A stretch of 64,000 nucleotides of DNA from a virus (lineage: Duplodnaviria; Heunggongvirae; Uroviricota; Caudoviricetes). Both the position numbers and the translations under genes were made by a program. Below are positions 16,365 through 54,392 of the stretch, piece by piece (the stretch's first letter is position 1; the number at the start of each line of letters is the position of its first letter). The notes under the pieces were generated by a model. It had not been told where the DNA came from and did not search any database. It saw only the letters and a program-made list of their open reading frames with translations. The stretch lies in the IMG/VR virus record IMGVR_UViG_2537561935_000012; one strand, written 5' to 3'.

Positions 16365-19300
16365 ATGAACAAGCTATCTATGGGGGTGTTTCGCTGTTCA
16401 AGTGTCAGCGAAATATTGAAATACATTAGGGCAATAACATCTCACCGAGCGCCGATTAGATACGGCGTGGAAAAGGTGGAAGGCAAAAGCTATGACCGAC
16501 TACGCCGGGAGGCGAATCAGAAGGCGATAGATTTGCTTAATTCGCTGGTGGACGGCGCGACACTGACAGATGAACAGCGCCAGATCCTGGCTGGGTACAC
16601 CGGTGAAGGCGGCATTGGCGGGTCCGTCTCCGAATATTACACACCAAAGTCGATCGCTGAAGGTGTCTGGGAGATCATGAAGCTCTACGGCGCGGACGTA
16701 GGTAACACTCTGGAACCATCGGCGGGAACCGGCGTTTTTAATGAGACAAAACCGGTTGGTACGGTGATGACCGCGACTGAGATCAGCAGTGTTTCCGGTC
16801 GTATAAACCAGTTGTTACACCCGGAAGACAGCGTACAGATTTCCCCGTTCGAACAGCTGGCTATAAGCACGCCTAACGATTCATTCGACCATGTTGTGGG
16901 TAACGTTCCGTTCGGCGGTCGTGATAACACACGCAACATCGATAAGCCTTACGCAGAAGAAACGGACATGGGTTCTTACTTCATGCTCCGCATGCTGGAC
17001 AAGATAAAGCCTGGCGGATTCATGTGTGTGATTGTGCCGCCGTCCATTGTTTCAGGTTCAAACATGAAGCGGTTACGCCTGCGCCTATCACGGAAAGCTG
17101 AATTTCTTGGCGCTCACCGCTTGCCTACCGGTACTTTTGACGCAAACGGGACCAGTACAGTCGTTGATGTGGTGCTGATGCGCAAACATCCGGCAGAGAT
17201 GGCTGAGAAAATCCCCCTGGTGGATGAAGGCACTCTTGAATCGGCAAATGTGCTTTGGCCAACGTTTATTTCTGGCAAGTGGTTTGAAAAGGATGGCCGC
17301 CGGTTTGTTCATGGCACCCAGGAAAAGGGCTTCCAGGGGCGTATTGAGGTTCGTGCCGACGGTCAGATTGATAACCAGGCTCTTAAAGCGAAGCTGATTC
17401 ATCGTTTCGAAAGCCGTATCGACTGGTCTTTGCTCGATATGGCTGAACCGTCACCGACCGCAGACGTTGTTGGTGAAGGGGAAATGCGCCTGATTAATGG
17501 TGTATGGCAAAAATATGCTGGTGGTCGCTGGATTGAAGCTGATGCCGGGAAGGAACTTAAGATCGATGCTGCCAGTTATGGCGCGGATAGCTGGGAGGCT
17601 CTTCAGCGTAACCTGACTACAACAGAAGGCCGTCTCGGCATGACATTTACCCAGATGGCAAATGTCCGCGATAAGTACACCACATCAATCAGCGACGATA
17701 TGGTGCAGCTGGTGGACTGGATTAACAGCCAGCCTGAAAAATACCGTGAACGCTTGTATCGCGGGGCGATGATTGGCCGGATGTTAATTGAATATCAGGA
17801 CATGAAGGCCGCCGGGCATAGTGCTGAACAAATCGAACAGCAGCGCCTTTCTCTGGTATCCAGTTTGCAGGCAGAGATTGACCGTTTTGGTAACCCCGGT
17901 CGCGGTCCGATAGCGAAATTATCGGGGAGCGGTGCGCGCGCCTGGTTTGCTTTCCGTGGTGCAATTAAGCTGGATGGCACTATTTCTGACGAGCTGACAG
18001 GAAAACTGGTTACGCATGATTCCAGCGCCAGTTATGACTCCACCAGCTATCAGGACACCCTGCGTTATCTCTACAGTGATCTCACTCGCGATCCAATCCA
18101 GCTCGATGATTTCCGCCTTGCGTTTACCGGCGAACTGCCAGCCAGTGATGACGAGTTGCTTAATTTATTGGCCAGCACCCCTGGCATTGCGGTTTCACCG
18201 TATGGCGGGATTGTTCCGTTCGCCCGCGCCACCAGCGGCGACATTAACGAGATAGTGGCACCAAAACAGGAATTCCTTGCCACACTCCCCGACGGTCCAG
18301 TAAAGAACAACGTCCTTAATCAGCTGGCAGCGATCGAAGAGAAGCGCATCAAGACGCCAGCAGAGAATATCCGCTTTAAGCTCAATAGCCGTTGGTTCGA
18401 CCGTTCCGTCATTCTGGAATTTTTGCAGGAAAACGGCTATCCGGATCTTCGCTATGTGCAGTCAGTGCAGCTGGAAGGCGACGAAATGGTTTCTGACACC
18501 TATCACGGTGGTGATGGTCTGTTCGTCGGGCACCGATACGGTGTCGTCCAGCGCAAGGATAAAGAAACAGGCGAGATCCGCTACGAGTGGGATCGTAAAT
18601 CAGGTGAAAACGCGACCGGGTTCCCGGCACAGCTGGAAAAGTATCTCAATGGTGCGCGTATCGGTGGCAAAGATAGCGCGACGGCGAACGGCTACCGCGA
18701 GCAGATGGCACTGCTTGAGGACCAGTTCAATAAGTGGATCAAGACGCACGATCGCTACGATGAACTGGTTACCAAATACAACGATGTGTTCAATAGCAAT
18801 ATCCCGTATGAACACTCTGGCGATCCGCTTGGGTTGAAGGGATTAAGCGGTAAGCGCCAGCCATTTGATTACCAGAATAGCGAGGTGCGCCGACTGTCCG
18901 AAGATGGGCGCGGCATCCTGGGCTTCGGCACCGGGCTGGGTAAAACCACGACCGCGCTGGCGCTTGAGGCGTTCAACTATGAGAACGGTCGCTCCACCCG
19001 TACTGCGTATGTAGTGCCTAAATCAGTGCTGGAAAACTGGTATTACGAAGCAAAAGAATTCCTGAGTGAAGAGGCATTCAGTAACTACCTGTTCGTCGGT
19101 CTTGATGTGCTGATGGATGGCGATCAGATTCGCCAGGTGCCGGTGCTCGATGAGAACGGTAAACCTGTTCTTGGTACTGATGGCACTCCCGTTATGCGCG
19201 ATGCTCTTAAGCTGGCAGATGAAGCCACTATCACGGCGCGGATGAACGCGATCCCGCACTCAAATTACCGTGCAGTCGTGTTTACCAAAGAACAATACGC

Positions 19301-22300
19301 CCGCATTCCTCTACGTGATGACACCGTAGATGAGCATGCACAGGATATGCTTTATGACTTCGTTGCCGCCGGGCGCGTAGCCAGCGCAATGGATTCCGAT
19401 TCCCATCGCAAAGAGGCGGCGCGTCGCCGGGGATTGTCGGAGTATTCAGATACCGGTACCGAAAAAGCAGAGAAGTATCCGTACTTTGAGGATATGGGCT
19501 TCGATAGTGTGATCGCTGACGAAGGTCACAACTACCGCAATAGCTATAAAAATGGTCGCGAAGCGTCACAACTGGCCTATCTGCCCACCAGCGCGGTGGC
19601 GCAATCGGCGCGAGATATGGCAATTAAAAACGCGTACCTGATGAAAAAGAATGGCGGGCGCGGGCCGGTTCTCCTGACTGCAACGCCAGTCGTTAACACC
19701 CCGATCGATGCATACAACATGCTTTCTCATGTTCTGCCGAAGGAATACTGGCAGAACATGGGGATCTACGGTCCTGATGACTTCGTTAAATTCTTCGGCA
19801 AGACCAGGCTGGAAACGGTGCAGAAAATCAGCGGTGAAGTTGAAGAAAAAATGGCGCTGGTGGGCTTTGAAAACCTTGATGCGCTGCGCGGTATATTCCA
19901 TCGCTGGGTAACGCTTAAAACGGCGGAAGACGTTAAGGATACCGTGGAGATCCCGGAGCTGGACGAACACCAGCAGGATGCACCACTTACTGAAGAACAA
20001 CTGGCGGCGTATGAAGAATTGCGTCAGCAGGCGGAAGCGGCGGCAAAAGCCAACAATGGCGTTACGACCTCGGTCAATGAAGACGGCGTGATTGAGCACG
20101 AGAAAGCCCGTCCGATCTTCTCAATAATCAGGGATATGGACCGCGTATGTACTGACATGGACCTGTACTATCGCCGGATCACCTATCGTTTCCTGCCGGA
20201 GTACGCCGATGCGGTGCAGCAGCTGGCGGACAGTTTGCCTAAACAAGCCACCAGCGAAGACGACGACAGTGATGATTCAATCACGCAGCAATCGCAATAC
20301 TCCCTGATAGATAAGGGCGAGTTTATTCAGTTGCAGGTTCCGGAAGCGTTCGAGCAGGAAGTGAATAAGCGCCTGGCCAGGTTTGGCATTGACGAACAGA
20401 CCGTAACTCACCCCGTTACGCCGAAATACGCGAAGCTGATCGCCACGCTGAAGGAGTTTTTCCCGGAAGGGAAGCAAATCATCTTCACCGACGAAAAAAC
20501 GCAGCACCAGAAGCTCAAGCGCATTATCTGCAATGCTCTTAACCTTGAACCTTCAAAGGTAGGGATCCTGAATGCTCAGACGGTTGCCGAGGCAGGTAAA
20601 ACCGGTAAGAAACTGAAAGCGGTTAAACCGCCGAAAGAGTTACCGGATGAACCAACAGATGCACAGATAGCGAAATACAACGAGCAAATGGCTCTGTATG
20701 ACGCCTATATCGCGCAGCAAAATGAAATGTCGTTGGGCGGTCTGGAAAAGATTGCAGCCGACTTCCAGGAGGGCCGGACTCCGATCATCATCTGCAACAA
20801 AAAGGCAGAGGTGGGTATCAACCTGCATCGAGGAACGACTGACATCCATCATCTGACGTTGCCATGGACACCAGCCAGTATCGCACAGCGTAACGGTCGC
20901 GGTGCTCGAGTTGGCTCCAACCGTGCAAGCGTTCGCGTTCACTACTACTGCGGCAAGGGGTCTTTCGATGAATACCGATTGAAGACGCTGAAGCGTAAAG
21001 CAGGCTGGATCTCCGATATCCTCCGTTCAGATAAGTCGGAAATGGAGAACGCCGACGCCAATGACATGATCGAAATGCAGATGTATACCGCGAAGGATGA
21101 CGGCGAACGTCTGGCAATGATGCAGGTTCAAATGGATAAGGCGAAAGCTGCGAAACGCGCTCGCCAGAAAGAACAGGCTACTATCGACCTTCAGAATTAC
21201 ATCAAGGCGCAGCACGCAGCTGGCGAGGATGTGGAGGTACTTACCGCTGAATTAGAGCGAAGCAAAGCGGAACTTGAAAAGACCACCGCCGAGGTAGCTA
21301 AATTCAAACAGGCGGTAATGGCCAAAGCAGCTGATAACGCAGACTGGAAAGCCCGCTGGGGTAGCGTCCATCACACAGACCGTACGTTGTTAGCACAGTA
21401 TCGCGCGTCGTTGAAAAGCGCCATTCAGCGCAAGGCTAATATCTCTCAGGCCATCTCCCGCTATGAGAAATTATTGAACCGTACTCAGAAGGCCGCGACG
21501 GATATCAAACGCCTGCGCCCGCTGGTGGAGGATGCAATAAATAAAGGCATTCTGGATGTTGATCCTGATCTGGTTAACCATGCGAGTGAGTTCCTTGTTA
21601 TCGGCGATCGCTCATGGCGTGTAGGCCAATACTACGATTGTGCCGGTGATATCGTTCGCATTAAGTCGCTGGACTTCGACAGCCAGCGCGCAGACGTGGA
21701 GATCATCTTTACCTTCAAAGGCACCAAATCGGGTAACTGGGATGTGAAGACGCTGGATAAACAGGTGGATGTAACTCCCGATGAAGATGCTGTTATGCAG
21801 AAAATCAGTGGTGGCGTCTCCATCGCCGGGATTAACGACATCATTTCCTGTGACGATTTCTACCGTTTCCAGCAGCGCGGCATGATCAAAATCACTGACT
21901 CGTACGGCGTTCAGACTACAGAGTCAGGCTATAGCATTGATTTTGTTGGTACCTATACGGACCCACTGAAGCATGCGGTTTACCCGGATCGCCGTGACGG
22001 CGCGCTGAAGTCGTCAATTGCAAAATGGGTGCTTGGTATGATGTCGGAAGGGAATAACCGCCAGATCCGTTCGGCAGAAACATTCCTGGTTGAATTGTTT
22101 GGCTCCAATTATGGCGATGTAATCGCGTCATACGGAGATACGCTATCCCCTGAAGCAATTCAGGAGAAAATAGCGGATGCGATCGCCAGAATGCCGGAAA
22201 AAACAAGCCAGGGGGCTACTCGTAACGGGGATTCTGAACTTGAAGTCACCAATGCCATTTTCGGTACCAATGAGTTCCGGGCGTCAGATTATGAGATCAC

Positions 22301-23132
22301 CACAGCACAGTTTGGCACCATTGACATTTACAGCAATAAAGCCGAGATCAAGCAGGCAATGGACGCAGCAAGCGCGCGCATCGCAGCAGAACGGGAAGCC
22401 AATCTGAATCATGCAGTCGCCGCGCTGACTCAATCGTGGGTAACAGCAATCAGGGAGGCCGCCACCACAGGGAAAATCACACCTGCAATAGCGGATGTCG
22501 TAAACGACGGCTCTAAATTTATGGATGCCTATCAAATGGATGCGGTGAAGTTGCCATCAGCCTATGGTCAACTCAGCTATCGCATGACCTACAACCTGGT
22601 ATCAATGTTTTCCGACCTTGCCATCCTTGGGCTGGTGGATCTTAACGAGGTTACGCCGGAATTGCTCAGCATGCGCAAGAATCATGTGGAGATATTGCAG
22701 AGAATTAACACGGTTCTTGCCGGGCGCACCGATGAAGAGAAACAGGCCGACGCTGATCGGATAAACCTGGCCCTTGGCAACATCACGGAGGAAGAGATTG
22801 CCGCCAGAAACGAGAAACAAGAAGAGTTATCATCAATACAGGGTGATGCCACCAGCATAGCTCAGTCTCTTGGTCTGAATTATCGCGTATCCACCGCCGA
22901 CCTGAAGATGATGTACGCACCAAAATTCGCCGCTGGCGAGGTATTTGGGCTTCAGGAAGCCTCAGGCATGAAAGGCGTTCTTTTCCGTGCGAAAGACGCA
23001 ATCAAGGCGAAATTCGGCGCTCGCTGGCTGCCAGCGAAGGCGAAGAACAGCGATTTCCCGGGTAACTGGTGGATTATCGAGACAAAACACAACGTGGCGG
23101 ACGTTCTGGCCGTCATCCAACAATACGCATAA
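16365..23132 (+). CDS. darB: Defence-against-restriction protein DarB: N6-adenine methyltransferase domain fused to SF2 helicase domain
   Basis: 2255 aa; N-terminal MTase motifs (EPSAGTGVF; VVGNVPFGG), helicase motif I GFGTGLGKTTTA, motif II VIADEGHNY, motif VI QRNGRGARVGS; same length as P1 DarB. Confidence 0.9.
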   Translation: MNKLSMGVFRCSSVSEILKYIRAITSHRAPIRYGVEKVEGKSYDRLRREANQKAIDLLNSLVDGATLTDEQRQILAGYTGEGGIGGSVSEYYTPKSIAEGVWEIMKLYGADVGNTLEPSAGTGVFNETKPVGTVMTATEISSVSGRINQLLHPEDSVQISPFEQLAISTPNDSFDHVVGNVPFGGRDNTRNIDKPYAEETDMGSYFMLRMLDKIKPGGFMCVIVPPSIVSGSNMKRLRLRLSRKAEFLGAHRLPTGTFDANGTSTVVDVVLMRKHPAEMAEKIPLVDEGTLESANVLWPTFISGKWFEKDGRRFVHGTQEKGFQGRIEVRADGQIDNQALKAKLIHRFESRIDWSLLDMAEPSPTADVVGEGEMRLINGVWQKYAGGRWIEADAGKELKIDAASYGADSWEALQRNLTTTEGRLGMTFTQMANVRDKYTTSISDDMVQLVDWINSQPEKYRERLYRGAMIGRMLIEYQDMKAAGHSAEQIEQQRLSLVSSLQAEIDRFGNPGRGPIAKLSGSGARAWFAFRGAIKLDGTISDELTGKLVTHDSSASYDSTSYQDTLRYLYSDLTRDPIQLDDFRLAFTGELPASDDELLNLLASTPGIAVSPYGGIVPFARATSGDINEIVAPKQEFLATLPDGPVKNNVLNQLAAIEEKRIKTPAENIRFKLNSRWFDRSVILEFLQENGYPDLRYVQSVQLEGDEMVSDTYHGGDGLFVGHRYGVVQRKDKETGEIRYEWDRKSGENATGFPAQLEKYLNGARIGGKDSATANGYREQMALLEDQFNKWIKTHDRYDELVTKYNDVFNSNIPYEHSGDPLGLKGLSGKRQPFDYQNSEVRRLSEDGRGILGFGTGLGKTTTALALEAFNYENGRSTRTAYVVPKSVLENWYYEAKEFLSEEAFSNYLFVGLDVLMDGDQIRQVPVLDENGKPVLGTDGTPVMRDALKLADEATITARMNAIPHSNYRAVVFTKEQYARIPLRDDTVDEHAQDMLYDFVAAGRVASAMDSDSHRKEAARRRGLSEYSDTGTEKAEKYPYFEDMGFDSVIADEGHNYRNSYKNGREASQLAYLPTSAVAQSARDMAIKNAYLMKKNGGRGPVLLTATPVVNTPIDAYNMLSHVLPKEYWQNMGIYGPDDFVKFFGKTRLETVQKISGEVEEKMALVGFENLDALRGIFHRWVTLKTAEDVKDTVEIPELDEHQQDAPLTEEQLAAYEELRQQAEAAAKANNGVTTSVNEDGVIEHEKARPIFSIIRDMDRVCTDMDLYYRRITYRFLPEYADAVQQLADSLPKQATSEDDDSDDSITQQSQYSLIDKGEFIQLQVPEAFEQEVNKRLARFGIDEQTVTHPVTPKYAKLIATLKEFFPEGKQIIFTDEKTQHQKLKRIICNALNLEPSKVGILNAQTVAEAGKTGKKLKAVKPPKELPDEPTDAQIAKYNEQMALYDAYIAQQNEMSLGGLEKIAADFQEGRTPIIICNKKAEVGINLHRGTTDIHHLTLPWTPASIAQRNGRGARVGSNRASVRVHYYCGKGSFDEYRLKTLKRKAGWISDILRSDKSEMENADANDMIEMQMYTAKDDGERLAMMQVQMDKAKAAKRARQKEQATIDLQNYIKAQHAAGEDVEVLTAELERSKAELEKTTAEVAKFKQAVMAKAADNADWKARWGSVHHTDRTLLAQYRASLKSAIQRKANISQAISRYEKLLNRTQKAATDIKRLRPLVEDAINKGILDVDPDLVNHASEFLVIGDRSWRVGQYYDCAGDIVRIKSLDFDSQRADVEIIFTFKGTKSGNWDVKTLDKQVDVTPDEDAVMQKISGGVSIAGINDIISCDDFYRFQQRGMIKITDSYGVQTTESGYSIDFVGTYTDPLKHAVYPDRRDGALKSSIAKWVLGMMSEGNNRQIRSAETFLVELFGSNYGDVIASYGDTLSPEAIQEKIADAIARMPEKTSQGATRNGDSELEVTNAIFGTNEFRASDYEITTAQFGTIDIYSNKAEIKQAMDAASARIAAEREANLNHAVAALTQSWVTAIREAATTGKITPAIADVVNDGSKFMDAYQMDAVKLPSAYGQLSYRMTYNLVSMFSDLAILGLVDLNEVTPELLSMRKNHVEILQRINTVLAGRTDEEKQADADRINLALGNITEEEIAARNEKQEELSSIQGDATSIAQSLGLNYRVSTADLKMMYAPKFAAGEVFGLQEASGMKGVLFRAKDAIKAKFGARWLPAKAKNSDFPGNWWIIETKHNVADVLAVIQQYA

Positions 23133-23165: not shown

Positions 23166-23606
23166 ATGGCCACACTATCTGATACAATAAAACCGAATAA
23201 AACATATCTTGAGGCGGTACTCCGTACAGCGTTGTTAGGAAAGACAGAAGACGAATACGTTGATTTCTTCCTGTCAGGGCTACGCGGGCGATTACTGAAA
23301 AACCCCCGCCTGTACCGCAGCTATGGTCCATACTGGCCGGAAATTAAAAAATTATTACTGGAGCGCGGTTATGGTAATTTCGGTCGTCTCGTTGACCGTG
23401 ACGTTCGCAAAATTTACCGTTATGACCGCCCGGCGCTAACACTCATAGCCGCGACGCTCTACAGCCAGGAGCGTTTTGATAATGGTCAGATATACTCAGC
23501 CTGGCATTTACTGCCAGTGCCTGAAGAAGTTGACGACCAGGACTATGAGTTTGAGTCTTACGATTTGGAAGTTGAAGCCTTGGCACAGGCTGGAGAGAAA
23601 ACTTGA
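23166..23606 (+). CDS. ulx: Ulx-like protein
   Basis: 146 aa immediately downstream of darB; synteny. Confidence 0.5.
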   Translation: MATLSDTIKPNKTYLEAVLRTALLGKTEDEYVDFFLSGLRGRLLKNPRLYRSYGPYWPEIKKLLLERGYGNFGRLVDRDVRKIYRYDRPALTLIAATLYSQERFDNGQIYSAWHLLPVPEEVDDQDYEFESYDLEVEALAQAGEKT

Positions 23607-23851
23607 AAAAGCGATACTACACAGTAAAGCATGGGACGCTACGAGCATTACAAGAGTTTGCTGACAAGCATAACGTTGAGGTGCGCAGGGAAGGGGGAAG
23701 TAAAGCTCTGCGCATGTACCGTCCGGACGGGAAATGGCGTACGGTCGTCGATTTCAAAACTAACAGTGTTCCCCAGGGCGTCCGCGATCGGGCATTCGAA
23801 GAATGGGAGCAGATCATCATAGATAACGCATTGCTCCTGAATGCTGATTAA
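23603..23851 (+). CDS. lxc: Lxc/Bof-like C1 co-repressor
   Basis: 82 aa, overlaps ulx stop; size and position as P1 lxc (bof). Confidence 0.5.
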   Translation: MKKRYYTVKHGTLRALQEFADKHNVEVRREGGSKALRMYRPDGKWRTVVDFKTNSVPQGVRDRAFEEWEQIIIDNALLLNAD

Positions 23852-23856
23852 GAACT

Positions 23857-23883
23857 CTCCGGCCTAGGGAGATTAGGCCGGAG
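23857..23883. terminator. Hairpin between convergent genes (candidate terminator)
   Basis: CTCCGGCCTA-gggagat-TAGGCCGGAG 10-bp perfect stem between lxc (+) and the SIR2-like gene (-); no clear T-run. Confidence 0.45.
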
Positions 23884-23892
23884 ATAAATATA

Positions 23893-25197
23893 CTATATAA
23901 ACTTAGATACAATATCGTGAATCTGTTGTAGCGGGATATCTTCCATCTCATTCTTAATAAGAGAGCGGTTAGATGCTGTCAGTGAAGGCCATTTTGTTTT
24001 CCAGGCTAGATATGCTCGCCATGAGTAGCCTGTTTCGTAAGGTTTATTCATATAAGTCATTGAGTGTTCAACCGCATGTATGTATTTTTTCTCAAAATTG
24101 GTTCCTTTTACTTCAAATAAACTACCGAAATAAATAAGCCATTTTGCCAGGTGTTCATACTGCTCCCATGCGCCAGGCTTTTTAGTAAGCTCTATTTTTT
24201 TATCTATTATATTACAAAAAACATTTAATACATTTTCATTATTCCAGCTATATCCAGATGATGAAATGGAGGAAATGATATGATAAAAAGAATCCTCTAG
24301 CTTCAAGAACTCTATTTTATACTCTCTTCCGTTTTTTATTACCGATTTGATTGAGTGCCTCAATTTGTCTTTTATTTTTTTTGCTTCTGGAATTTTATCG
24401 TTAAGTTTTCTAAAGAAATCAGATACCTCTGTTTTATCTATAACCCTAACCCCATAGCAGGAAAAATAGTAATCTTTAATAGGTTGCAATAGTTCCCCTC
24501 GGGAAACAAGGAAAATATTGGAGGACATTACGTTGTCCCGTGAAAATACCTTATATTCATTTATAATAGCCTTTAGGTTCGCGTCACTTAGAGAATAGCC
24601 AAGGATAACAATAGTGTTTTCATGTAGAACTGTGCTTAGTTTATTAGAAAAGTAAGAATTACCATTTATAAATCTGAAATAATCCTCGCTAGTAACAACC
24701 ATGTCTGATGGGGAGTCTATAGAACCGTGAACATGGTAGACTTTAACCTCACAATTATATTTTGGAATTGGCAGGCCGGGGGTGATTGTACAAGTTCGAT
24801 TCTCTCCAGCCAGCTTTTCTGCTAACTTGTCATAATTTGTCGTAATTACTTTAAATGTGTTTTCTTTGAAAAAGTCTTGAATATATTCAATTGATGGATC
24901 AAGTTCGATTGAGGCTATGATTTTCTCAATCTCTTGGTAAATATTTTTCCCCGAAAGTATAAGTTTTAGTGCAATAACCTGAGCAGCTTCTTCAAGGCTA
25001 AGGTCTTTTGCTTTTCCATCAGGAAATAATTCCTCTTTGAGTGAGTCACCATCCTTCAATAAACCGCACAGTTGCTCCAATAAAGATTGCCAACTTGGGG
25101 CTTTATCATCAGAAACAGCCTTTGAAAATCCAGTGCCTGTAAGAAAGCACAGCCTATGTGTAGCCGCTGCATAGGCAATTTCTATATACTCGCTCAT
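23893..25197 (-). CDS. SIR2-like (NAD-dependent deacetylase/NADase fold) protein with uncharacterised C-terminal domain; candidate anti-phage defence effector
   Basis: 434 aa, ATG with GGAG RBS. N-terminal motifs CFLTGTGFS (GAGxS-like), VITTNYD and VYHVHGS in the order and spacing of SIR2-family defence proteins. DNA is markedly AT-rich (about one-third GC in a sampled stretch) compared with neighbours. Confidence 0.7.
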   Translation of the reverse strand: MSEYIEIAYAAATHRLCFLTGTGFSKAVSDDKAPSWQSLLEQLCGLLKDGDSLKEELFPDGKAKDLSLEEAAQVIALKLILSGKNIYQEIEKIIASIELDPSIEYIQDFFKENTFKVITTNYDKLAEKLAGENRTCTITPGLPIPKYNCEVKVYHVHGSIDSPSDMVVTSEDYFRFINGNSYFSNKLSTVLHENTIVILGYSLSDANLKAIINEYKVFSRDNVMSSNIFLVSRGELLQPIKDYYFSCYGVRVIDKTEVSDFFRKLNDKIPEAKKIKDKLRHSIKSVIKNGREYKIEFLKLEDSFYHIISSISSSGYSWNNENVLNVFCNIIDKKIELTKKPGAWEQYEHLAKWLIYFGSLFEVKGTNFEKKYIHAVEHSMTYMNKPYETGYSWRAYLAWKTKWPSLTASNRSLIKNEMEDIPLQQIHDIVSKFI

Positions 25198-25253
25198 TAC
25201 TTACTCCATTTACTTATAGTTCTACGGAGAAGTATACCCTAATGCATTGACGT

Positions 25254-25895
25254 TTATAGATAATTTCCTTTTCCTGTTAATACTCCCTTAGGCACCTGTT
25301 TTTGTGCCAGCGTTTGGGTGCCGCGAATTATGTTAATCAGAGGGCTTAGTAACGATGGTTCCTGGCGTGCCTCAACTTCTCCAGCCATTGCCCTGATGTA
25401 GTCGGCGCTGGCAACGTTGTTGTATTCCGTCGCAAAGCAACATAGTAACGTCAGAACATGCTCTGTCGTTATTTCGCTCCAGTTGATGTTGAAAAATTCA
25501 TCGCCTTTTTTATCGTGTTCGGAATCGAAGATGCTTTGGTGGAGGATGTATTTGCCGGATTCCTTGCGCGGTAACTTGATTGCTTTCTGGCGTTCCAGCT
25601 CCTTATAAATCTGCATTGCCTCAATTAGTACCGGCCTGCCGTTCATGAAGGGATCGCGCAACCTTACACGCTGGCCAACTCGACCAGTAATAAAGCTGTT
25701 TTCCTCTTCCACCAGCACGATAAAACCCTTTTCCTCTTTTTCTCGCAATTCGCGCAGCAGCTGGAGTTCCATATCGCGGCGGCGTTCAGGGTAGCTGGTC
25801 CGCTCAGCCATTATTAGCTCATTGTTGATCCATGCAGCAGTCATTGACGCCGGTTTGCCGACGCTCATCGAAACAACGCATATTTTCTTATCCAT
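25254..25895 (-). CDS. Hypothetical protein, backbone-like GC; at the position of P1 mat
   Basis: 213 aa from ATG 25895 with AGGGGG RBS (track ORF extends to GTG 26042); same strand and 56 bp upstream of the SIR2-like gene. Confidence 0.45.
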   Translation of the reverse strand: MDKKICVVSMSVGKPASMTAAWINNELIMAERTSYPERRRDMELQLLRELREKEEKGFIVLVEEENSFITGRVGQRVRLRDPFMNGRPVLIEAMQIYKELERQKAIKLPRKESGKYILHQSIFDSEHDKKGDEFFNINWSEITTEHVLTLLCCFATEYNNVASADYIRAMAGEVEARQEPSLLSPLINIIRGTQTLAQKQVPKGVLTGKGNYL

Positions 25896-26084
25896 AGCGC
25901 CCCCTACAAAAAAGAAAAGCCACCAGCGGCGGCTTAGCAATACAACTGAAGGTAGCGCCCGGTACTCAGACTGTGCCGTCCATGGAATATTTGAAAAGGG
26001 ATCCATCCGTACCGGGCATGTGATGATTCTGACTGAAGTCACTTGTCAGTTGTCAATTATTTCAGATTAAAAATAATATATTTA

Positions 26085-26645
26085 TTAGTGCATGATGTTT
26101 GCCATCTCATAGGCGTCAGCCAGCAACTCCATCTCTGACTTGTTCAGCAAGGTGAATTCTTTCTTGCCTCCAACCACCCCATCGGCATGAACAGGGACCA
26201 GCCAGGGGGATTTTTCTCTTACTTCAGCCGGTGCTGCATGCTGGTGGTGCCATCTACAAAGGGGCAATTGCTTTTTGTGACAACCCGGCGCGGTACGACC
26301 GGAGATATGGTGCAGAGATACCTCTTCAGATATTACTCCATGCATGTAGCAGGCAATGCAGGGGAGAGCGCCAAGAGCATTGGCGATGCTCCGTTCCTCC
26401 GCTGTCGATGTTCGCCCCTTCAAGCCACGAGATTTTATCTTTACCGCACTTTTCCGCGTTTTGCTGGCTGGTGGGCGCTCTTTCTGTTTAGCGATACGGC
26501 GGTCGATAGAATCCCGCATTTTCTGATATTGCGATTCTCGCCAGGCGGGGTCAGCCAACTTTTCCCGTTGCCGAGCGATCGCTCGTTCTCTGGCTGCCTT
26601 CTGCCACTCGCGGCGCTGTTCAAGTTTTTGTTCGATTGTTTTCAT
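26085..26645 (-). CDS. ref: Recombination enhancement function, HNH endonuclease
   Basis: 186 aa; basic N-terminal region and HNH-like Cys/His cluster (CIACYMHG ... HH ... CRWHH); matches P1 Ref in size and position. Confidence 0.85.
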   Translation of the reverse strand: MKTIEQKLEQRREWQKAARERAIARQREKLADPAWRESQYQKMRDSIDRRIAKQKERPPASKTRKSAVKIKSRGLKGRTSTAEERSIANALGALPCIACYMHGVISEEVSLHHISGRTAPGCHKKQLPLCRWHHQHAAPAEVREKSPWLVPVHADGVVGGKKEFTLLNKSEMELLADAYEMANIMH

Positions 26646-26731
26646 ATGGCAAAAAAAAAGGCGGCCTAATGGCCGCCAATGATGTCAAGGAGTTAAGTAA
26701 TGGCAACGTCTTCGTAGTTGACAAAAACTGC

Positions 26732-26761
26732 GGCTTAATTATAGCAATCAATTAGAGCAAT
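26732..26761 (-). promoter_or_regulatory. Tandem C1 operator-like sites upstream of ref
   Basis: Overlapping ATTATAGCAAT and ATTAGAGCAAT cores (reverse complement of operator consensus) about 100 bp upstream of ref start. Confidence 0.5.
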
Positions 26762-26892
26762 GGTAGATATTTTGTTAATCGCGAATCACATTTTTTCACT
26801 TCAGTACCTGTGTGCTATACTCCTTCTTGATTGATTGGATGCGGAATACAAACCCGCTCTTTTGTGCAGCCTGGCTCCTTGCCAGGCTTTTT

Positions 26893-27204
26893 TTATTTCA
26901 TCATGGAAGCTGTTAACGCTTTGGATCTTGCTGAACTGATTGAAAGGGCATTGTTTACCTTACCCAGGAGTTCGCCAAATTCCACCATCACTCTAGTAAG
27001 CCCGCGCCGCGCTTCCTCCTCCGTTGCATTCATCACAAAATGTTCAGCACTCCGCATGCTTTTAACGGGGAACGCAACAGATATCGAGTCGATATCAGGC
27101 ATCCTATCGCTCAACTTTACGGTGACAATGACAGATGGTGACTGAATTTGAGAGCTTACAGACAGCACCACATATTTTCCGTCTATTTTGAAATCCTTCC
27201 GCAT
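26893..27204 (-). CDS. Hypothetical protein between cre and ref (Cra-like position)
   Basis: 103-aa ORF; synteny only. Confidence 0.35.
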   Translation of the reverse strand: MRKDFKIDGKYVVLSVSSQIQSPSVIVTVKLSDRMPDIDSISVAFPVKSMRSAEHFVMNATEEEARRGLTRVMVEFGELLGKVNNALSISSARSKALTASMMK

Positions 27205-27254: not shown

Positions 27255-28286
27255 CTAATCGCCATCTTCCAGCAGGCGCACCATTGCCCCCGTTTCACTA
27301 TCCAGGTTACGGATATAGTTCATGACAATATTTACGTTGGTCCAGCCACCAGCTTGCATGATCTCCGGTATTGAAACTCCGGCGCGGGCCATATCTCGCG
27401 CGGCTCCGACACGGGCACTGTGTCCAGACCAGGCCAGGTATCTCTGACCAGAGTCATCCTTAGCGCCGTAAATCAATCGATGAGTTGCTTCAAAAATCCC
27501 TTCCAGGGCGCGAGTTGATAGCTGGCTGGTGGCAGATGGCGCGGCAACACCATTTTTTCTGACACGGCAAAACAAGTAGTTATTCGGATCATCAGCCACA
27601 CCAGAGACAGAAATCCATCGCTCGACCAGTTTAGTTACCCCCAGGCTAAGTGCCTTCTCTACACCTGCGGTGCTAACCAGCGTTTTCGTTCTGCCAATAT
27701 GGATTAACATTCTCCCACCGTCAGTACGTGAGATATCTTTAACCCTGATCCTGGCAATTTCGGCTATACGTAATAGGGTGTTATAAGCAATCCCCAGAAA
27801 TGCCAGATTACGTATATCCTGGCAGCGATCGCTATTTTCCATGAGTGAACGAACCTGGTCGAAATCAGTGCGTTCGAACGCCAGTGCCTGTTTTGCACGT
27901 TCACCGGCATCAACGTTTTCTTTTCGGATCCGTCGCATGACCAGTGAAACAGCATTACTGTCACTTGGTCGTGGCAGCCCGGACCGACGATGAAGCATGT
28001 TTAGCTGGCCCAAATGTTGCTGGATAGTTTTTACTGCCAGACCGCGCGCCTGAAGATATAGAAGATAATCGCGAACATCTTCAGGTTCTGCGGGAAACCA
28101 TTTCCGGTTATTCAACTTGCACCATGCCGCCCACGATCGGCAAACGGACAGAAGCATTTTCCAGGTATGCTCAGAAAACGCCTGGCGATCCCTGAACATG
28201 TCCATCAGGTTCTTGCGAACCTCATCACTCGTTGCATCGACCGGTAATGCAGGTAAATTTTGGTGTACGGTCAGTAAATTGGACAT
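27255..28286 (-). CDS. cre: Cre tyrosine site-specific recombinase
   Basis: 343 aa; translation MSNLLTVHQNLPALPVDATSDEVRKNLMDMFRDRQAFSEHTWKML... ends ...RLLEDGD, the familiar Cre sequence; loxP lies about 420 bp upstream. Confidence 0.98.
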   Translation of the reverse strand: MSNLLTVHQNLPALPVDATSDEVRKNLMDMFRDRQAFSEHTWKMLLSVCRSWAAWCKLNNRKWFPAEPEDVRDYLLYLQARGLAVKTIQQHLGQLNMLHRRSGLPRPSDSNAVSLVMRRIRKENVDAGERAKQALAFERTDFDQVRSLMENSDRCQDIRNLAFLGIAYNTLLRIAEIARIRVKDISRTDGGRMLIHIGRTKTLVSTAGVEKALSLGVTKLVERWISVSGVADDPNNYLFCRVRKNGVAAPSATSQLSTRALEGIFEATHRLIYGAKDDSGQRYLAWSGHSARVGAARDMARAGVSIPEIMQAGGWTNVNIVMNYIRNLDSETGAMVRLLEDGD

Positions 28287-30315: not shown

Positions 30316-31800
30316 TTATTCATTAAGCCATGCCAGAGCTTCATCAACCTGCGCTTCGTCTTCGACGCTAAGCACTTCATCCTGGGGAACATAATCAGCC
30401 AGCATAGCGAAACAATATGTATCCCAATGGTCTGGTGAGTGCAGGTTGAGTTTTTTCTTCATATCCTCCTTACTCATCACCTTCCATTGACCTGCGGAGT
30501 TAATCCCTACAGGGATTTTCGACGCTTCCTCAATAGTTTCATTACCCTTATCCAGTCTCATACGACCAGATTTTACGGCCTCTGCGGCTTGAACGTTGGC
30601 ATAAGCACGTTTATCAAAGTACAGGCTCTTATCTTCACGGCTATGCATCTTTTTACCCCAGCGTATACGCTGTACGGTAATACCATAATACTCGTACATC
30701 AGATCCGCCGTTGCTTTACCCAGGCCATCGCCGTCTATCGCTATGGTGATATTGGGGAATCGCTCAGGATTACATTCTGCGAAAATTTTGGCGGCAAGCT
30801 GCGTTTCTGTAACGTCTGTGTATTCCAGCATTCGATAGTTGATTACACGGCGTTTATTTCGCTGGCCGGACACCATCATGATATTGATAACGGACTTATC
30901 CCGTCCCGTACCACCAGCAACGTCCACACATGCAAGCCAGCCCCATCCTTTTGCAATCTTGACTTTCCGCCGCGTTGCACGTTCAACCTCATCACGCCCA
31001 AGAAGGAAGCCATCCTGTGATTTAGGGAATAGGCCGCGTACCTTAATCATGTACATAGGGTTATCACGCCCGCCGTACTCCGCCAGCTTCATTTTGATAA
31101 ATGCTGGCGTTACCAACGGTGATTCCTCACTGTTAAGCGTGATCGCCGTATAAACGCCATCAGGGTTACCAGGACGCTTGGCCAGTTTATGGTGTGTATC
31201 GTAGAAATAGCAGCTTGGGCGTGTAGGCTGTGACAGCAATAAGATGCGGTTATCCTGTCCGGTAAGAGCACCGGTGATGATACCGAAAGCTCTATCACTG
31301 ACACCGGAGGCTTCATCGATAATATACAGAAGATGATCTGCGTGTTCACCGGCGAGAGCTTCTTCACTTCCCAGACGAAAGCCCTTCGGTACTACAGTCC
31401 ATACACCTTTACCAGTAATCTCATAGAAAGCGGTTTCTGTCAGAACAAAATAATCAGCAAGCCATGGGAAACGGCTGGGGGCAGTAGCCCAGTTTATCTT
31501 GATGTACTTGAATATACCGGTCATTACCTGCTGAATTTTGTTCGCAACGATAATGGCACGGGCACCTGGATACATGATTATGAACAACATGATCATGATA
31601 GAAGTCATGTCTGATTTCCCGGTACCGTGACCAGACGAAACAGATGTCTTGCTACCCTGTTCCTGCACAGACTCAATAATCAGATCCTGCTGCCAGGTAG
31701 GTGTTTTGCCGAACAAAACATCAGCGGCAGCAATCAAGTCATAACGATATAGCGCCACCAGCTCGCGCCAACGTGGATCCGTTACGCAACTTCTGGCCAT
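30316..31800 (-). CDS. pacB: Pacase/terminase large subunit PacB
   Basis: 494 aa, Walker-A-like GHGTGKS, follows pacA with overlapping stop/start. Confidence 0.8.
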
Positions 31801-49640: not shown

Positions 49641-50018
49641 ATGGCTACATCAATCACTACAACCCAAAGCACCCGGCAATATCCTCTGTCGCGGTATGAC
49701 GACCGCAACATAGCCGATCCAATACTCAGGGCAGAGCTACGCAAAGAGGTGATGCTTATGTGTGAATCGAACGACAAGAATATGACGATTTATTACGTTC
49801 TTCCCGATGAGCAATATCGCCCGGATTTGCTGGCTTACCGTATGTGGGGCATAGCAGAGCTACGCTGGGTTGTGACGCTCGCCGCCGGGCTTGAGGATGA
49901 GTCTCAGGGTATGACTGTTGGCAAAAAATTAAAACTCCCACCTGCCACCTGGATCCGCGAAATGATTCGCCATTTCCAATACGACGGCCAGGTAATAGGG
50001 ACATTATCCATTGCGTAA
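49641..50018 (+). CDS. Hypothetical protein (first gene of plus-strand block)
   Basis: 125-aa ORF. Confidence 0.4.
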   Translation: MATSITTTQSTRQYPLSRYDDRNIADPILRAELRKEVMLMCESNDKNMTIYYVLPDEQYRPDLLAYRMWGIAELRWVVTLAAGLEDESQGMTVGKKLKLPPATWIREMIRHFQYDGQVIGTLSIA

Positions 50019-50027
50019 GGGAATTGA

Positions 50028-51245
50028 ATGCCAACTGAATATGCTCGCGACAACCTTGGTCGCTATCAGACCGATGGATTAAGTGCAAAAGACTTTAACA
50101 AGGTCTTCGATCTTATCCGTAAACAGCAGCGTCAGAATCGGCGAAACGCGCGGCGTACACTCACCCCAAGGATTATGGGGATGCGTAACCGCGAACTTGA
50201 GGCATTCCTCAGCCTTGGGAAAAAGAAAGATGGCACCTACTTTACGCCCGAAGATATACGCAGTTTCAACACCTCAAGGCAGGCTCATAAAACCAAATTC
50301 AAGAGCACGGTACCCGGCATTACCTATGCTCAGCTGGTGGCGCAGTCCACCAGCATTGATATAAAACGCGCTAACAACAAAGTTTCTGATGGCACAGGGA
50401 TCAAAGCCGCGACATTTCTCGGGCTAAAACACAACCTTGCATTGATATCTGTTAATGCCTCGGATGAGTCTGTCCACCAGCATCACCGTGTCAGAATTCG
50501 ATTTGAGGAATGGGATAAAGCCGTTGAGGATATTGCTGAAGACGGTGCGAAAAAAGCCCGAATCGCTGCCGATCTCTGCAAGGGCCGGGTATCTTTCGAC
50601 TGTGATTGTGGACGCCATCAATACTGGTATCGTTATATGGCCACGGCTGGTAACTATGCTGTCGCGCCGCCAAAAGAGTATGCATTCCCCAAAATCCGCA
50701 ACCCTGATCTGACTGGTGTGGCTTGCAAACATGTTTTGCACGCTATGACGCGTTTTCAGTCTCCCACATGGCACAAGGCCATCATTATTGCCCTGGAAAA
50801 AGCAGCTGAACAGGTAGCCTTCGGCGATGACAAGCGGAAGACAACAACCTATTTCAAAGGCGAACTGGCTAAATCGCTCGCGCGCAACCGGACAACAACG
50901 ACGGATCAGGCTAAAGCTGCGCGTGAGTATGAGCTGTATCTGAAATCTCAGGATGCATTAGGCAAAAAACTACGCGCCAAAGATAGCGCCACGGACAACG
51001 TTCGCCGGTTGTTAAAAAAAGCTCGCACCACGGCAAACAGGAAGAATGCCGAACTAAAAGCATCGCGGGTGAGGGAAGCCCAGGCTCGCGCTGAAGCCGA
51101 CGCTCTCAAAAAAGCCCTGCAAACGCAGGCGAACAACCTCATAAAGTTTTTCATGAGTCAGGGAATGGACAAGACCGCTGCCACCGCGCAGGCGCGAAGC
51201 ATTCTTGAGACACAAATTAACGAAGCCCGTAAACGGAAAGGATAA
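50028..51245 (+). CDS. Hypothetical protein with SWIM-type zinc-finger-like motif and basic coiled-coil C-terminus
   Basis: 405 aa; CDCGRHQYWYRY ... CKHVLH motif. Confidence 0.4.
   Translation: MPTEYARDNLGRYQTDGLSAKDFNKVFDLIRKQQRQNRRNARRTLTPRIMGMRNRELEAFLSLGKKKDGTYFTPEDIRSFNTSRQAHKTKFKSTVPGITYAQLVAQSTSIDIKRANNKVSDGTGIKAATFLGLKHNLALISVNASDESVHQHHRVRIRFEEWDKAVEDIAEDGAKKARIAADLCKGRVSFDCDCGRHQYWYRYMATAGNYAVAPPKEYAFPKIRNPDLTGVACKHVLHAMTRFQSPTWHKAIIIALEKAAEQVAFGDDKRKTTTYFKGELAKSLARNRTTTTDQAKAAREYELYLKSQDALGKKLRAKDSATDNVRRLLKKARTTANRKNAELKASRVREAQARAEADALKKALQTQANNLIKFFMSQGMDKTAATAQARSILETQINEARKRKG

Positions 51246-54392
<3,147 letters not shown>

Follow-up and report, generated by a model that had tools for sequence, protein, structure and literature searches.

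A backbone gene next to a SIR2 cassette: the mat gene of a P1-like phage-plasmid and its predicted terminase-nuclease-like fold

The mat gene (gene 1) of phage P1 has been named for decades without a molecular function being assigned to its product. Mutants in gene 1 were reportedly classed by Walker and Walker (1983) as defective in 'particle maturation', with a defect that could be in either the head or the tail. Older genetic work places mat among the essential genes (Lehnherr 2001, through PMC10695390), and its knock-down by CRISPR interference gave an efficiency of plating (EOP) of 0.28 (PMC10695390). PMC9024508 does not count Mat among the proteins of the virion; it describes gp24 as a tail terminator, gp26 as resembling T4 gp53, and gp7 and gp25 as 'tail stability' proteins. 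Exchange of defence genes among P1-like phage-plasmids has also been described (PMC10879196), and eight low-GC, highly variable regions have been mentioned for such elements (PMC11117986). This study focused on a minus-strand open reading frame (ORF) in a 64,000-nucleotide stretch of DNA from a virus of the class Caudoviricetes (IMG/VR record IMGVR_UViG_2537561935_000012; the whole stretch is called the window here). The ORF lies directly upstream of a gene with a SIR2 domain, and an initial annotation had left it as either a backbone gene or a co-operating partner of SIR2. The window is a P1-like phage-plasmid, and the ORF is mat, the known particle-maturation gene and a conserved part of the backbone of these elements. 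Taken as a whole, an explanation in which the ORF is mat, mat is backbone, SIR2 is cargo and Mat serves as an assembly factor is held with high confidence.

When the protein was aligned with P1 Mat, as the initial annotation had advised, 241 of 250 residues (96%) were identical by BLASTP, and by tblastn the identity was 95.8% over 213 aa to both P1 and P7. Residues 1-213 matched the phrog_1837 profile over positions 1-212 of 212, with an E value of 3.3e-113. The similarity extends to the surrounding DNA: window positions 25254-26999 (L001 5995-7740), comprising mat, the Pmat/LPmat promoter, the Omat operator and ref, are 94.4% identical to P1. P1 Mat (gene 1; YP_006475; phrog_1837) shares with the window the flanking genes ref, c8 and cre as well as the promoter/operator region, is of the same length as the window protein once its start is corrected, and differs from it by 9 substitutions within the last ~30 residues. 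On the 3' side of mat the two elements part company, P1 having the convergent genes res and mod, whereas the window has the SIR2 cassette on the same strand as mat. The suggestion that this ORF simply occupies the position of mat in P1, a SIR2 cassette having been inserted downstream, is borne out by the 96% identity and by the position after ref.

The limits of the gene required revision. In the ORF list, the maximal minus-strand ORF (25254..26042) comprises 262 aa from a GTG codon; an internal ATG at 25895 gives a 213-aa protein starting MDKKICVV..., and the P1 reference Mat, of 250 aa, corresponds to an ATG at window position 26006. The MDKKIC start is common to all homologues at 40-75% identity, and the extensions 5' of it are unrelated. 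The 37 extra codons of the 250-aa P1 Mat (window 25896-26006, minus strand, equivalent to P1 NC_005856 2716-2826) run across a GC hairpin at 25935-25917. Because MDKKIC is conserved, the extension is not, and the extension crosses a terminator-like hairpin, the 213-aa start is preferred and, judged from sequence, the P1 reference annotation is probably 37 codons too long. The phrog_1837 profile, at 212 residues, is in line with a 213-aa protein, and the NCBI name for the 213-aa proteins is now 'maturation control protein'. Bases 25896-26042 are non-coding; the leader of mat and a portion of its promoter fall here. Of the span originally given for the gene, the stop at 25254 stands, while the upper limit of 26042 is that of the maximal GTG ORF and is replaced by 25895. 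The coordinates confirm a 213-aa protein on the same strand as the SIR2-like gene and 56 bp upstream of it (mat stop at 25254, SIR2 ATG at 25197). A ribosome-binding site is indeed present, as a GGGGG Shine-Dalgarno-like run 4 nt 5' of the ATG, but it is fair and not strong as had been stated. The protein was said to have no recognisable motifs, and it found no match in scans of Pfam, NCBIfam and PADLOC.

Composition and distribution both bear on whether mat belongs to the backbone or to the SIR2 gene. The GC content of mat (0.478) is backbone-like, being close to that of the whole window (0.483), and contrasts sharply with that of the SIR2 gene (0.354) and the 56-bp gap (0.357); the earlier reading of this difference as favouring a backbone gene was sound. 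The conserved part of mat was present in 694/5426 complete E. coli genomes and the SIR2 allele of the window in 70/5426, about 90% of the mat-bearing genomes being without that allele. Plasmid records gave 694 with mat and 124 with the SIR2 segment, 66 of the latter at ≥90% identity. The P1-like genomes that carry mat and no SIR2 include P1 (res/mod), RCS47 (an empty slot), P7, SJ46 and many plasmids. In the other direction, homologues of SIR2 are widespread among Gammaproteobacteria, with a uniform length of ~434 aa and 55-61% identity. Three contexts of homologues at 56-58% identity were examined, namely an E. coli chromosomal island next to an integrase, a marine metagenome contig next to hsdR, and a Halomonas island; a Mat-family hidden Markov model (HMM) detected nothing within 4 kb of SIR2 in any of them, although positive controls were recovered, and no partner gene was conserved around the homologues in these three contexts. 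Since mat is widespread without SIR2, the cargo at this site varies, and SIR2 homologues occur without a Mat neighbour, the two genes are independent, and there is no functional tie between them. The functional coupling entertained in the initial annotation is rejected by this distribution; the co-occurrence survey it had called for, and the pairing of 96% identity to P1 Mat with the presence of mat in P1-like genomes that lack SIR2, both favour unrelated backbone.

The SIR2 gene is one of many interchangeable cargo cassettes in a recombination slot that extends from the stop codon of lxc to the 3' end of mat (Table 1). Breakpoints relative to P1, RCS47 and other P1-like elements lie at 23847-23865, at the lxc stop, and at 25252-25386, which is the mat stop or, often, up to ~130 nt inside the mat coding sequence. 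In P1 the slot is occupied by res and mod, which encode a type III restriction-modification system, and in SJ46 and 673R5 by a RelA/SpoT gene; in RCS47 there is no cargo, only a 39-bp lxc-mat spacer. Other P1-like plasmids carry a YaaC-family gene with a hypothetical gene, a PIN-domain gene, a DUF2971 gene or an EAL-domain gene, and two SIR2 alleles are found in the slot among P1-like elements. The edges of the slot were very sharp when window positions 23852-25253 were compared with loci L001, L002 and L004-L010. A hairpin with an 11-bp stem (23856-23884) lies between the lxc and SIR2 stop codons and is probably a bidirectional terminator. The hairpin found after lxc in RCS47 is a different one, so the whole intergenic segment belongs to the exchangeable module. 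Low GC, interchangeable cassettes and sharp boundaries are features that the lxc-mat interval shares with the variable regions in which P1-like elements carry defence or resistance cargo, and no publication was found that names this slot or its SIR2 cassette. Both mat itself and this type of variable region are already known, so the pairing with SIR2 is ordinary.

Table 1. Positions in the window of mat, its control elements, the cargo cassette and related genes.
Feature	Position	Strand	Details
mat coding sequence	25254..25895	-	213 aa + stop; P1 particle-maturation gene; feature under study
mat-leader hairpin	25907..25935	-	GC-rich AAGCCGCC-GCT-GGTGGCTT then TTCTTTTTT; from terminator scan
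Pmat/LPmat promoter	26026..26056	-	-35 TTGACA 26056-26051; -22 box 26044-26036; -10 26031-26026
Omat, C1 repressor operator	26077..26094	.	overlaps 3' end of ref; sequence ATGCACTAATAAATAT present
Variable cargo cassette	23852..25253	-	hairpin 23856-23884 + SIR2_2 gene 23893-25197 + 56-bp low-GC spacer
SIR2_2-domain gene	23893-25197	-	434 aa
darB	16365-23132	+	
ulx	23166-23606	+	
lxc (C1 modulator)	23603-23851	+	conserved left edge of slot, convergent with mat
ref (RecA-dependent nuclease)	26085-26645	-	backbone gene 5' of mat; Pfam RecA_dep_nuc E 1e-49; P1 annotation
c8	26893-27204	-	
cre	27255-28286	-	
pacB (large terminase)	30316..31800	-	nuclease-domain motifs VDVAGG, IDGDG, SPDHWD
Homologues of P1 tail/baseplate genes 26, 25, 7, 24	49686..52737	+	~24 kb from mat in window

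The product of the cargo gene has an N-terminal SIR2_2 domain (Pfam, E 2e-23) within its 434 aa. Its best PADLOC match was PDC-S25, models for ThsA, LmuA and Dsr2 being matched in the SIR2 domain alone, and it fell far under the NCBIfam cut-offs (Dsr2, 30 bits against a cut-off of 1400). The likeness to DSR1/DSR2 and PDC-S25, which are single-gene SIR2 systems (PDC-S25 a candidate one), and to ThsA is confined to this domain. Unlike Thoeris (ThsA/ThsB) and SIR2-HerA, the locus has no ThsB/TIR, HerA or LmuB gene, and Mat matches no component of known SIR2 defence systems (0 families in PADLOC, Pfam and NCBIfam). From its domain, SIR2 probably acts alone as a defence effector that consumes nicotinamide adenine dinucleotide (NAD). 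It is most reasonably regarded as cargo in the lxc-mat slot that consists of a single gene, and not as half of a two-gene system. A scan of the 56-bp mat-SIR2 spacer for sigma-70 promoters found no clear one.

Sequence variation is unevenly spread along mat. Codons 1-165 are near-invariant among P1-like elements, with nonsynonymous divergence (dN) of 0-0.005 and synonymous divergence (dS) of 0.02-0.27, values that indicate strong purifying selection on the N-terminus, and the last 48 codons are divergent (dS 0.6-1.3, dN up to 0.46). Co-adaptation of the C-terminus with the cargo was considered and rejected: dS rises alongside dN, and RCS47, with its empty slot, has the C-terminal protein allele of the SIR2 carriers (96%). 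For these two reasons, intragenic recombination breakpoints together with linkage to the cargo are the preferred explanation. As a separate observation, a type I-E CRISPR spacer of E. coli E04 (NZ_CM143912.1, 1172915-1172947), in an array adjoining cas1e/cas2e, matches mat at 33/33 nt (window 25517-25549), and the E04 chromosome therefore carries immunity against P1-like elements.

A profile search of 1.84 billion representative proteins recovered 141 members of the Mat family, nearly all of them stand-alone proteins of 185-230 aa. All 103 members that were aligned matched phrog_1837, itself a family of unknown function that comprises at least 141 clusters at 50% identity. A Pfam scan of the 103 gave one chance match to a domain of unknown function (DUF), and the Mat profile produced only chance matches against PDB sequences (E ~0.7-1). 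An AlphaFold2 model built on 13 close homologues was unusable, with a predicted local distance difference test (pLDDT) score of 49.9, and was replaced by one built on the 103-sequence alignment, for which the pLDDT was 90.5 and the predicted template-modelling score (pTM) 0.78. Structure prediction had been among the checks first proposed, and what emerged was a terminase-nuclease-like fold. In Foldseek searches, each of the top 20 PDB matches was to a large terminase, either its nuclease domain or the full-length protein (probability 0.99-1.0), and the matches included G20c, P22, E217, D6E, SPP1, P74-26 and T4 gp17. Template-modelling (TM) scores for PDB domain structures, normalised to query or target, were 0.40-0.53 over 150-220 aligned columns; the BFVD database gave 28 matches at E<1e-3, the named ones mostly terminase large subunits, with TM up to 0.58. 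The predicted fold of Mat thus resembles the RNase H-like nuclease domain of large terminases, including the terminase-type beta-hairpin, the consistent best matches being such nuclease domains as those of G20c (5M1F), P22 (4DKW), SPP1 G2P (2WBN) and T4 gp17 (3CPE).

The differences from these domains are equally clear. Mat lacks the ATPase domain of a large terminase, has three C-terminal helices that are extra to the nuclease domain, resembles neither PacB nor the Pfam terminase families in sequence or profile, and is linked to tail and baseplate genes, not to a small terminase. The catalytic Asp on strand beta1 is absent throughout the Mat family, replaced by Ser, Thr or Cys: at position 9 there are 53 S, 21 T and 14 C among the 103 sequences, with an acidic fraction of 0.01 (≤0.09 at the neighbouring positions). 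An acidic pair after strand beta4 is shared with these domains: D or E stands at position 63 in 94% of the 103 sequences and at position 64 in 97%. Positions 95, 124, 138 and 145 are partly conserved, the window protein having Q95 and N138. On the evidence of the model and the alignment, a non-catalytic role would be more likely for Mat than a nuclease role. PacB itself had no Pfam match at E<=0.1, and its nuclease motifs (Table 1) are conserved in homologues at 41-51% identity.

The position of mat in distant relatives points in a similar direction. Genes 3' of mat in D6 and in seven metagenomic or genomic relatives (L011, L014-L017, L024 and L025) were compared with the window by tblastn, and in all eight, where Mat is 24-57% identical to that of the window, homologues of genes 26 and 25 directly follow mat. 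A gene 7 homologue comes next in five of them (D6, L015, L016, L024 and L025), and a 4-nt overlap between mat and the gene after it is seen in several relatives. L024 (4224-8195) has a pacB homologue, then mat starting 4 nt after it, and then genes 26, 25 and 7. This order suggests that the P1 block of immunity genes, cre and ref was inserted into an older pacB-mat-tail operon. The linkage to genes 26, 25 and 7 (24 in some relatives), and once to pacB, shows where partners of Mat should be sought. In L025 (6001-8616, a contig of GCA_053082105.1), the quartet of mat, gene 26, gene 25 and a gene 7-like gene stands amid ordinary-looking chromosomal genes (a major facilitator superfamily (MFS) transporter, a short-chain dehydrogenase/reductase (SDR) and galactokinase), with few other phage genes called nearby, and could represent what is left of a prophage or a module that has been domesticated.

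The modelled fold of Mat and its gene neighbours suggest that it is probably an assembly factor, absent from the virion, that serves the final maturation of particles. Acting at the last step of morphogenesis, it would make filled heads and tails competent to join, or stabilise their junction, and it would do so by binding, probably at the head-tail interface, and not by cutting DNA. It would act alongside the products of genes 26, 25, 7 and 24, or shortly ahead of them, and mat is co-operonic with these genes in most relatives. For Mat there is now a structural hypothesis open to test, namely a fold like that of terminase nucleases in which the key Asp is missing. The putative corrected start, the predicted fold, the linkage to tail genes and pacB, and the leader hairpin described below are of specialist interest, and still hypotheses.

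Several points weigh against this account. The particle-maturation phenotype of mat comes second-hand from old genetics, and the proposed mechanism is drawn from fold and synteny alone. The TM-scores are modest (0.40-0.58). Comparison of the Mat profile with the C-terminal nuclease domain of PacB by hhalign gave no signal (probability 0.14-0.15), PacB being represented by a single sequence or by a small alignment of 13 close C-domain relatives, too shallow for a good profile; since there is no such signal, resemblance of fold is claimed here, and not homology or family membership. The conserved acidic residues at 63/64, 124 and 138 could form a non-canonical active site. Finally, mat varies in step with the cargo over its last 48 codons, and no terminator lies between mat and SIR2, so that the two may be co-transcribed, which would be a physical and not a functional coupling.

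The control region of mat was also considered. The positions of Pmat/LPmat and Omat were transferred from the P1 RefSeq annotation through the 94.4% alignment, and their motifs were then read in the window. By analogy with that annotation, mat would be transcribed from a C1-repressed, Lpa-activated Pmat/LPmat, giving a transcript with a leader of ~125 nt that would end in a terminator-like hairpin. The hairpin (25935-25917) lies within the leader (25896-26019), 22 nt 5' of the ATG and just before the Shine-Dalgarno run. Eight divergent lineages have a hairpin with a T-run 5' of mat; its distance from the start codon is 16-37 nt in the window, D6, L011, L014, L015, L016 and L018, whereas in L017 it lies ~75 nt upstream. 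Across lineages only this hairpin was alignable, not the upstream leader, and in a six-lineage alignment (window, L015, D6, L014, L011 and L016) compensatory changes were seen in 3/7 of its pairs. An Rfam scan of the mat leader returned chance matches and no family, and folding of the leader as a single sequence was not significant (z = -1.2). The hairpin could be an attenuator, could release a small terminated leader RNA, or could merely be the terminator of an upstream unit.

These strands can be drawn together in a more elaborate proposal, which is offered tentatively and is doubtful as a whole. The phrog_1837 proteins would be catalytically degenerate, stand-alone terminase-nuclease folds, encoded ancestrally between pacB and genes 26-25-7-24, that serve at the portal vertex as a hand-over factor. 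Once headful packaging is over, Mat would replace or mimic the nuclease domain of the terminase, allowing the neck and tail terminator to dock, and its expression would be gated by the conserved leader hairpin acting as an attenuator.

It is unlikely, and a degree less so than the alternatives that follow, that Mat is instead an active stand-alone nuclease of the terminase or RuvC type, trimming or resolving DNA during or after headful packaging. The terminase-nuclease-like fold would suit such an enzyme, poxvirus RuvC-like resolvases appear lower among the structural matches, and mat immediately follows pacB in L024. The nearly invariant acidic residues at 63/64 (94-97%), with D/N/E at 124 and D/N at 138, could be read in the same way. 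However, the beta1 Asp, which is the most conserved catalytic residue of RNase H-like enzymes, is missing (S/T/C in 88/103), and P1 Mat has N138 and Q95 where other members have D or E. PacB already has a complete set of nuclease motifs, and the conserved neighbours of mat are tail and baseplate genes, not genes of DNA metabolism.

A role for Mat as a regulator, a 'maturation control' protein that switches on or times the morphogenetic genes, is improbable. The historical name, the dual early/late promoter with its C1 operator, and the place of mat at the head of a 26-25-7-24 operon in relatives are what speak for it. On the other side, no DNA-binding motif or helix-turn-helix (HTH) family was detected in Mat, the predicted fold is enzyme-like and not regulator-like, and the 4-nt overlaps with the next gene are typical of co-translated assembly partners. 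Least credible by far is that Mat is a sensor, activator or antitoxin working with SIR2 in a two-gene defence system: the shared strand, the 56-bp distance with no terminator, the C-terminal 48 aa that vary with cargo type, and the sensing of terminase folds by Avs-type defence proteins (an Avs3-terminase complex is among the structural matches of Mat) can be cited for it, but it is already largely refuted by the distribution of the two genes, by the other cargo or none in the slot of P1, RCS47 and others, by the SIR2 carriers' C-terminal allele in RCS47, by SIR2 homologues elsewhere without a Mat neighbour, and by the lack of a PADLOC match for Mat and the sharp difference in GC.

The ref-mat intergenic region represents a second insertion site. 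In pCFS3292-3 (L006 6642-11185), a segment of ~4.5 kb with cupin and recombinase genes replaces ref 5' of mat, and Tn1721-blaCTX-M-27 has been reported between ref and mat in P1-like phages (compare SJ46, PMC5241659). Insertions of this kind would part mat from its promoter and operator, or disturb them.

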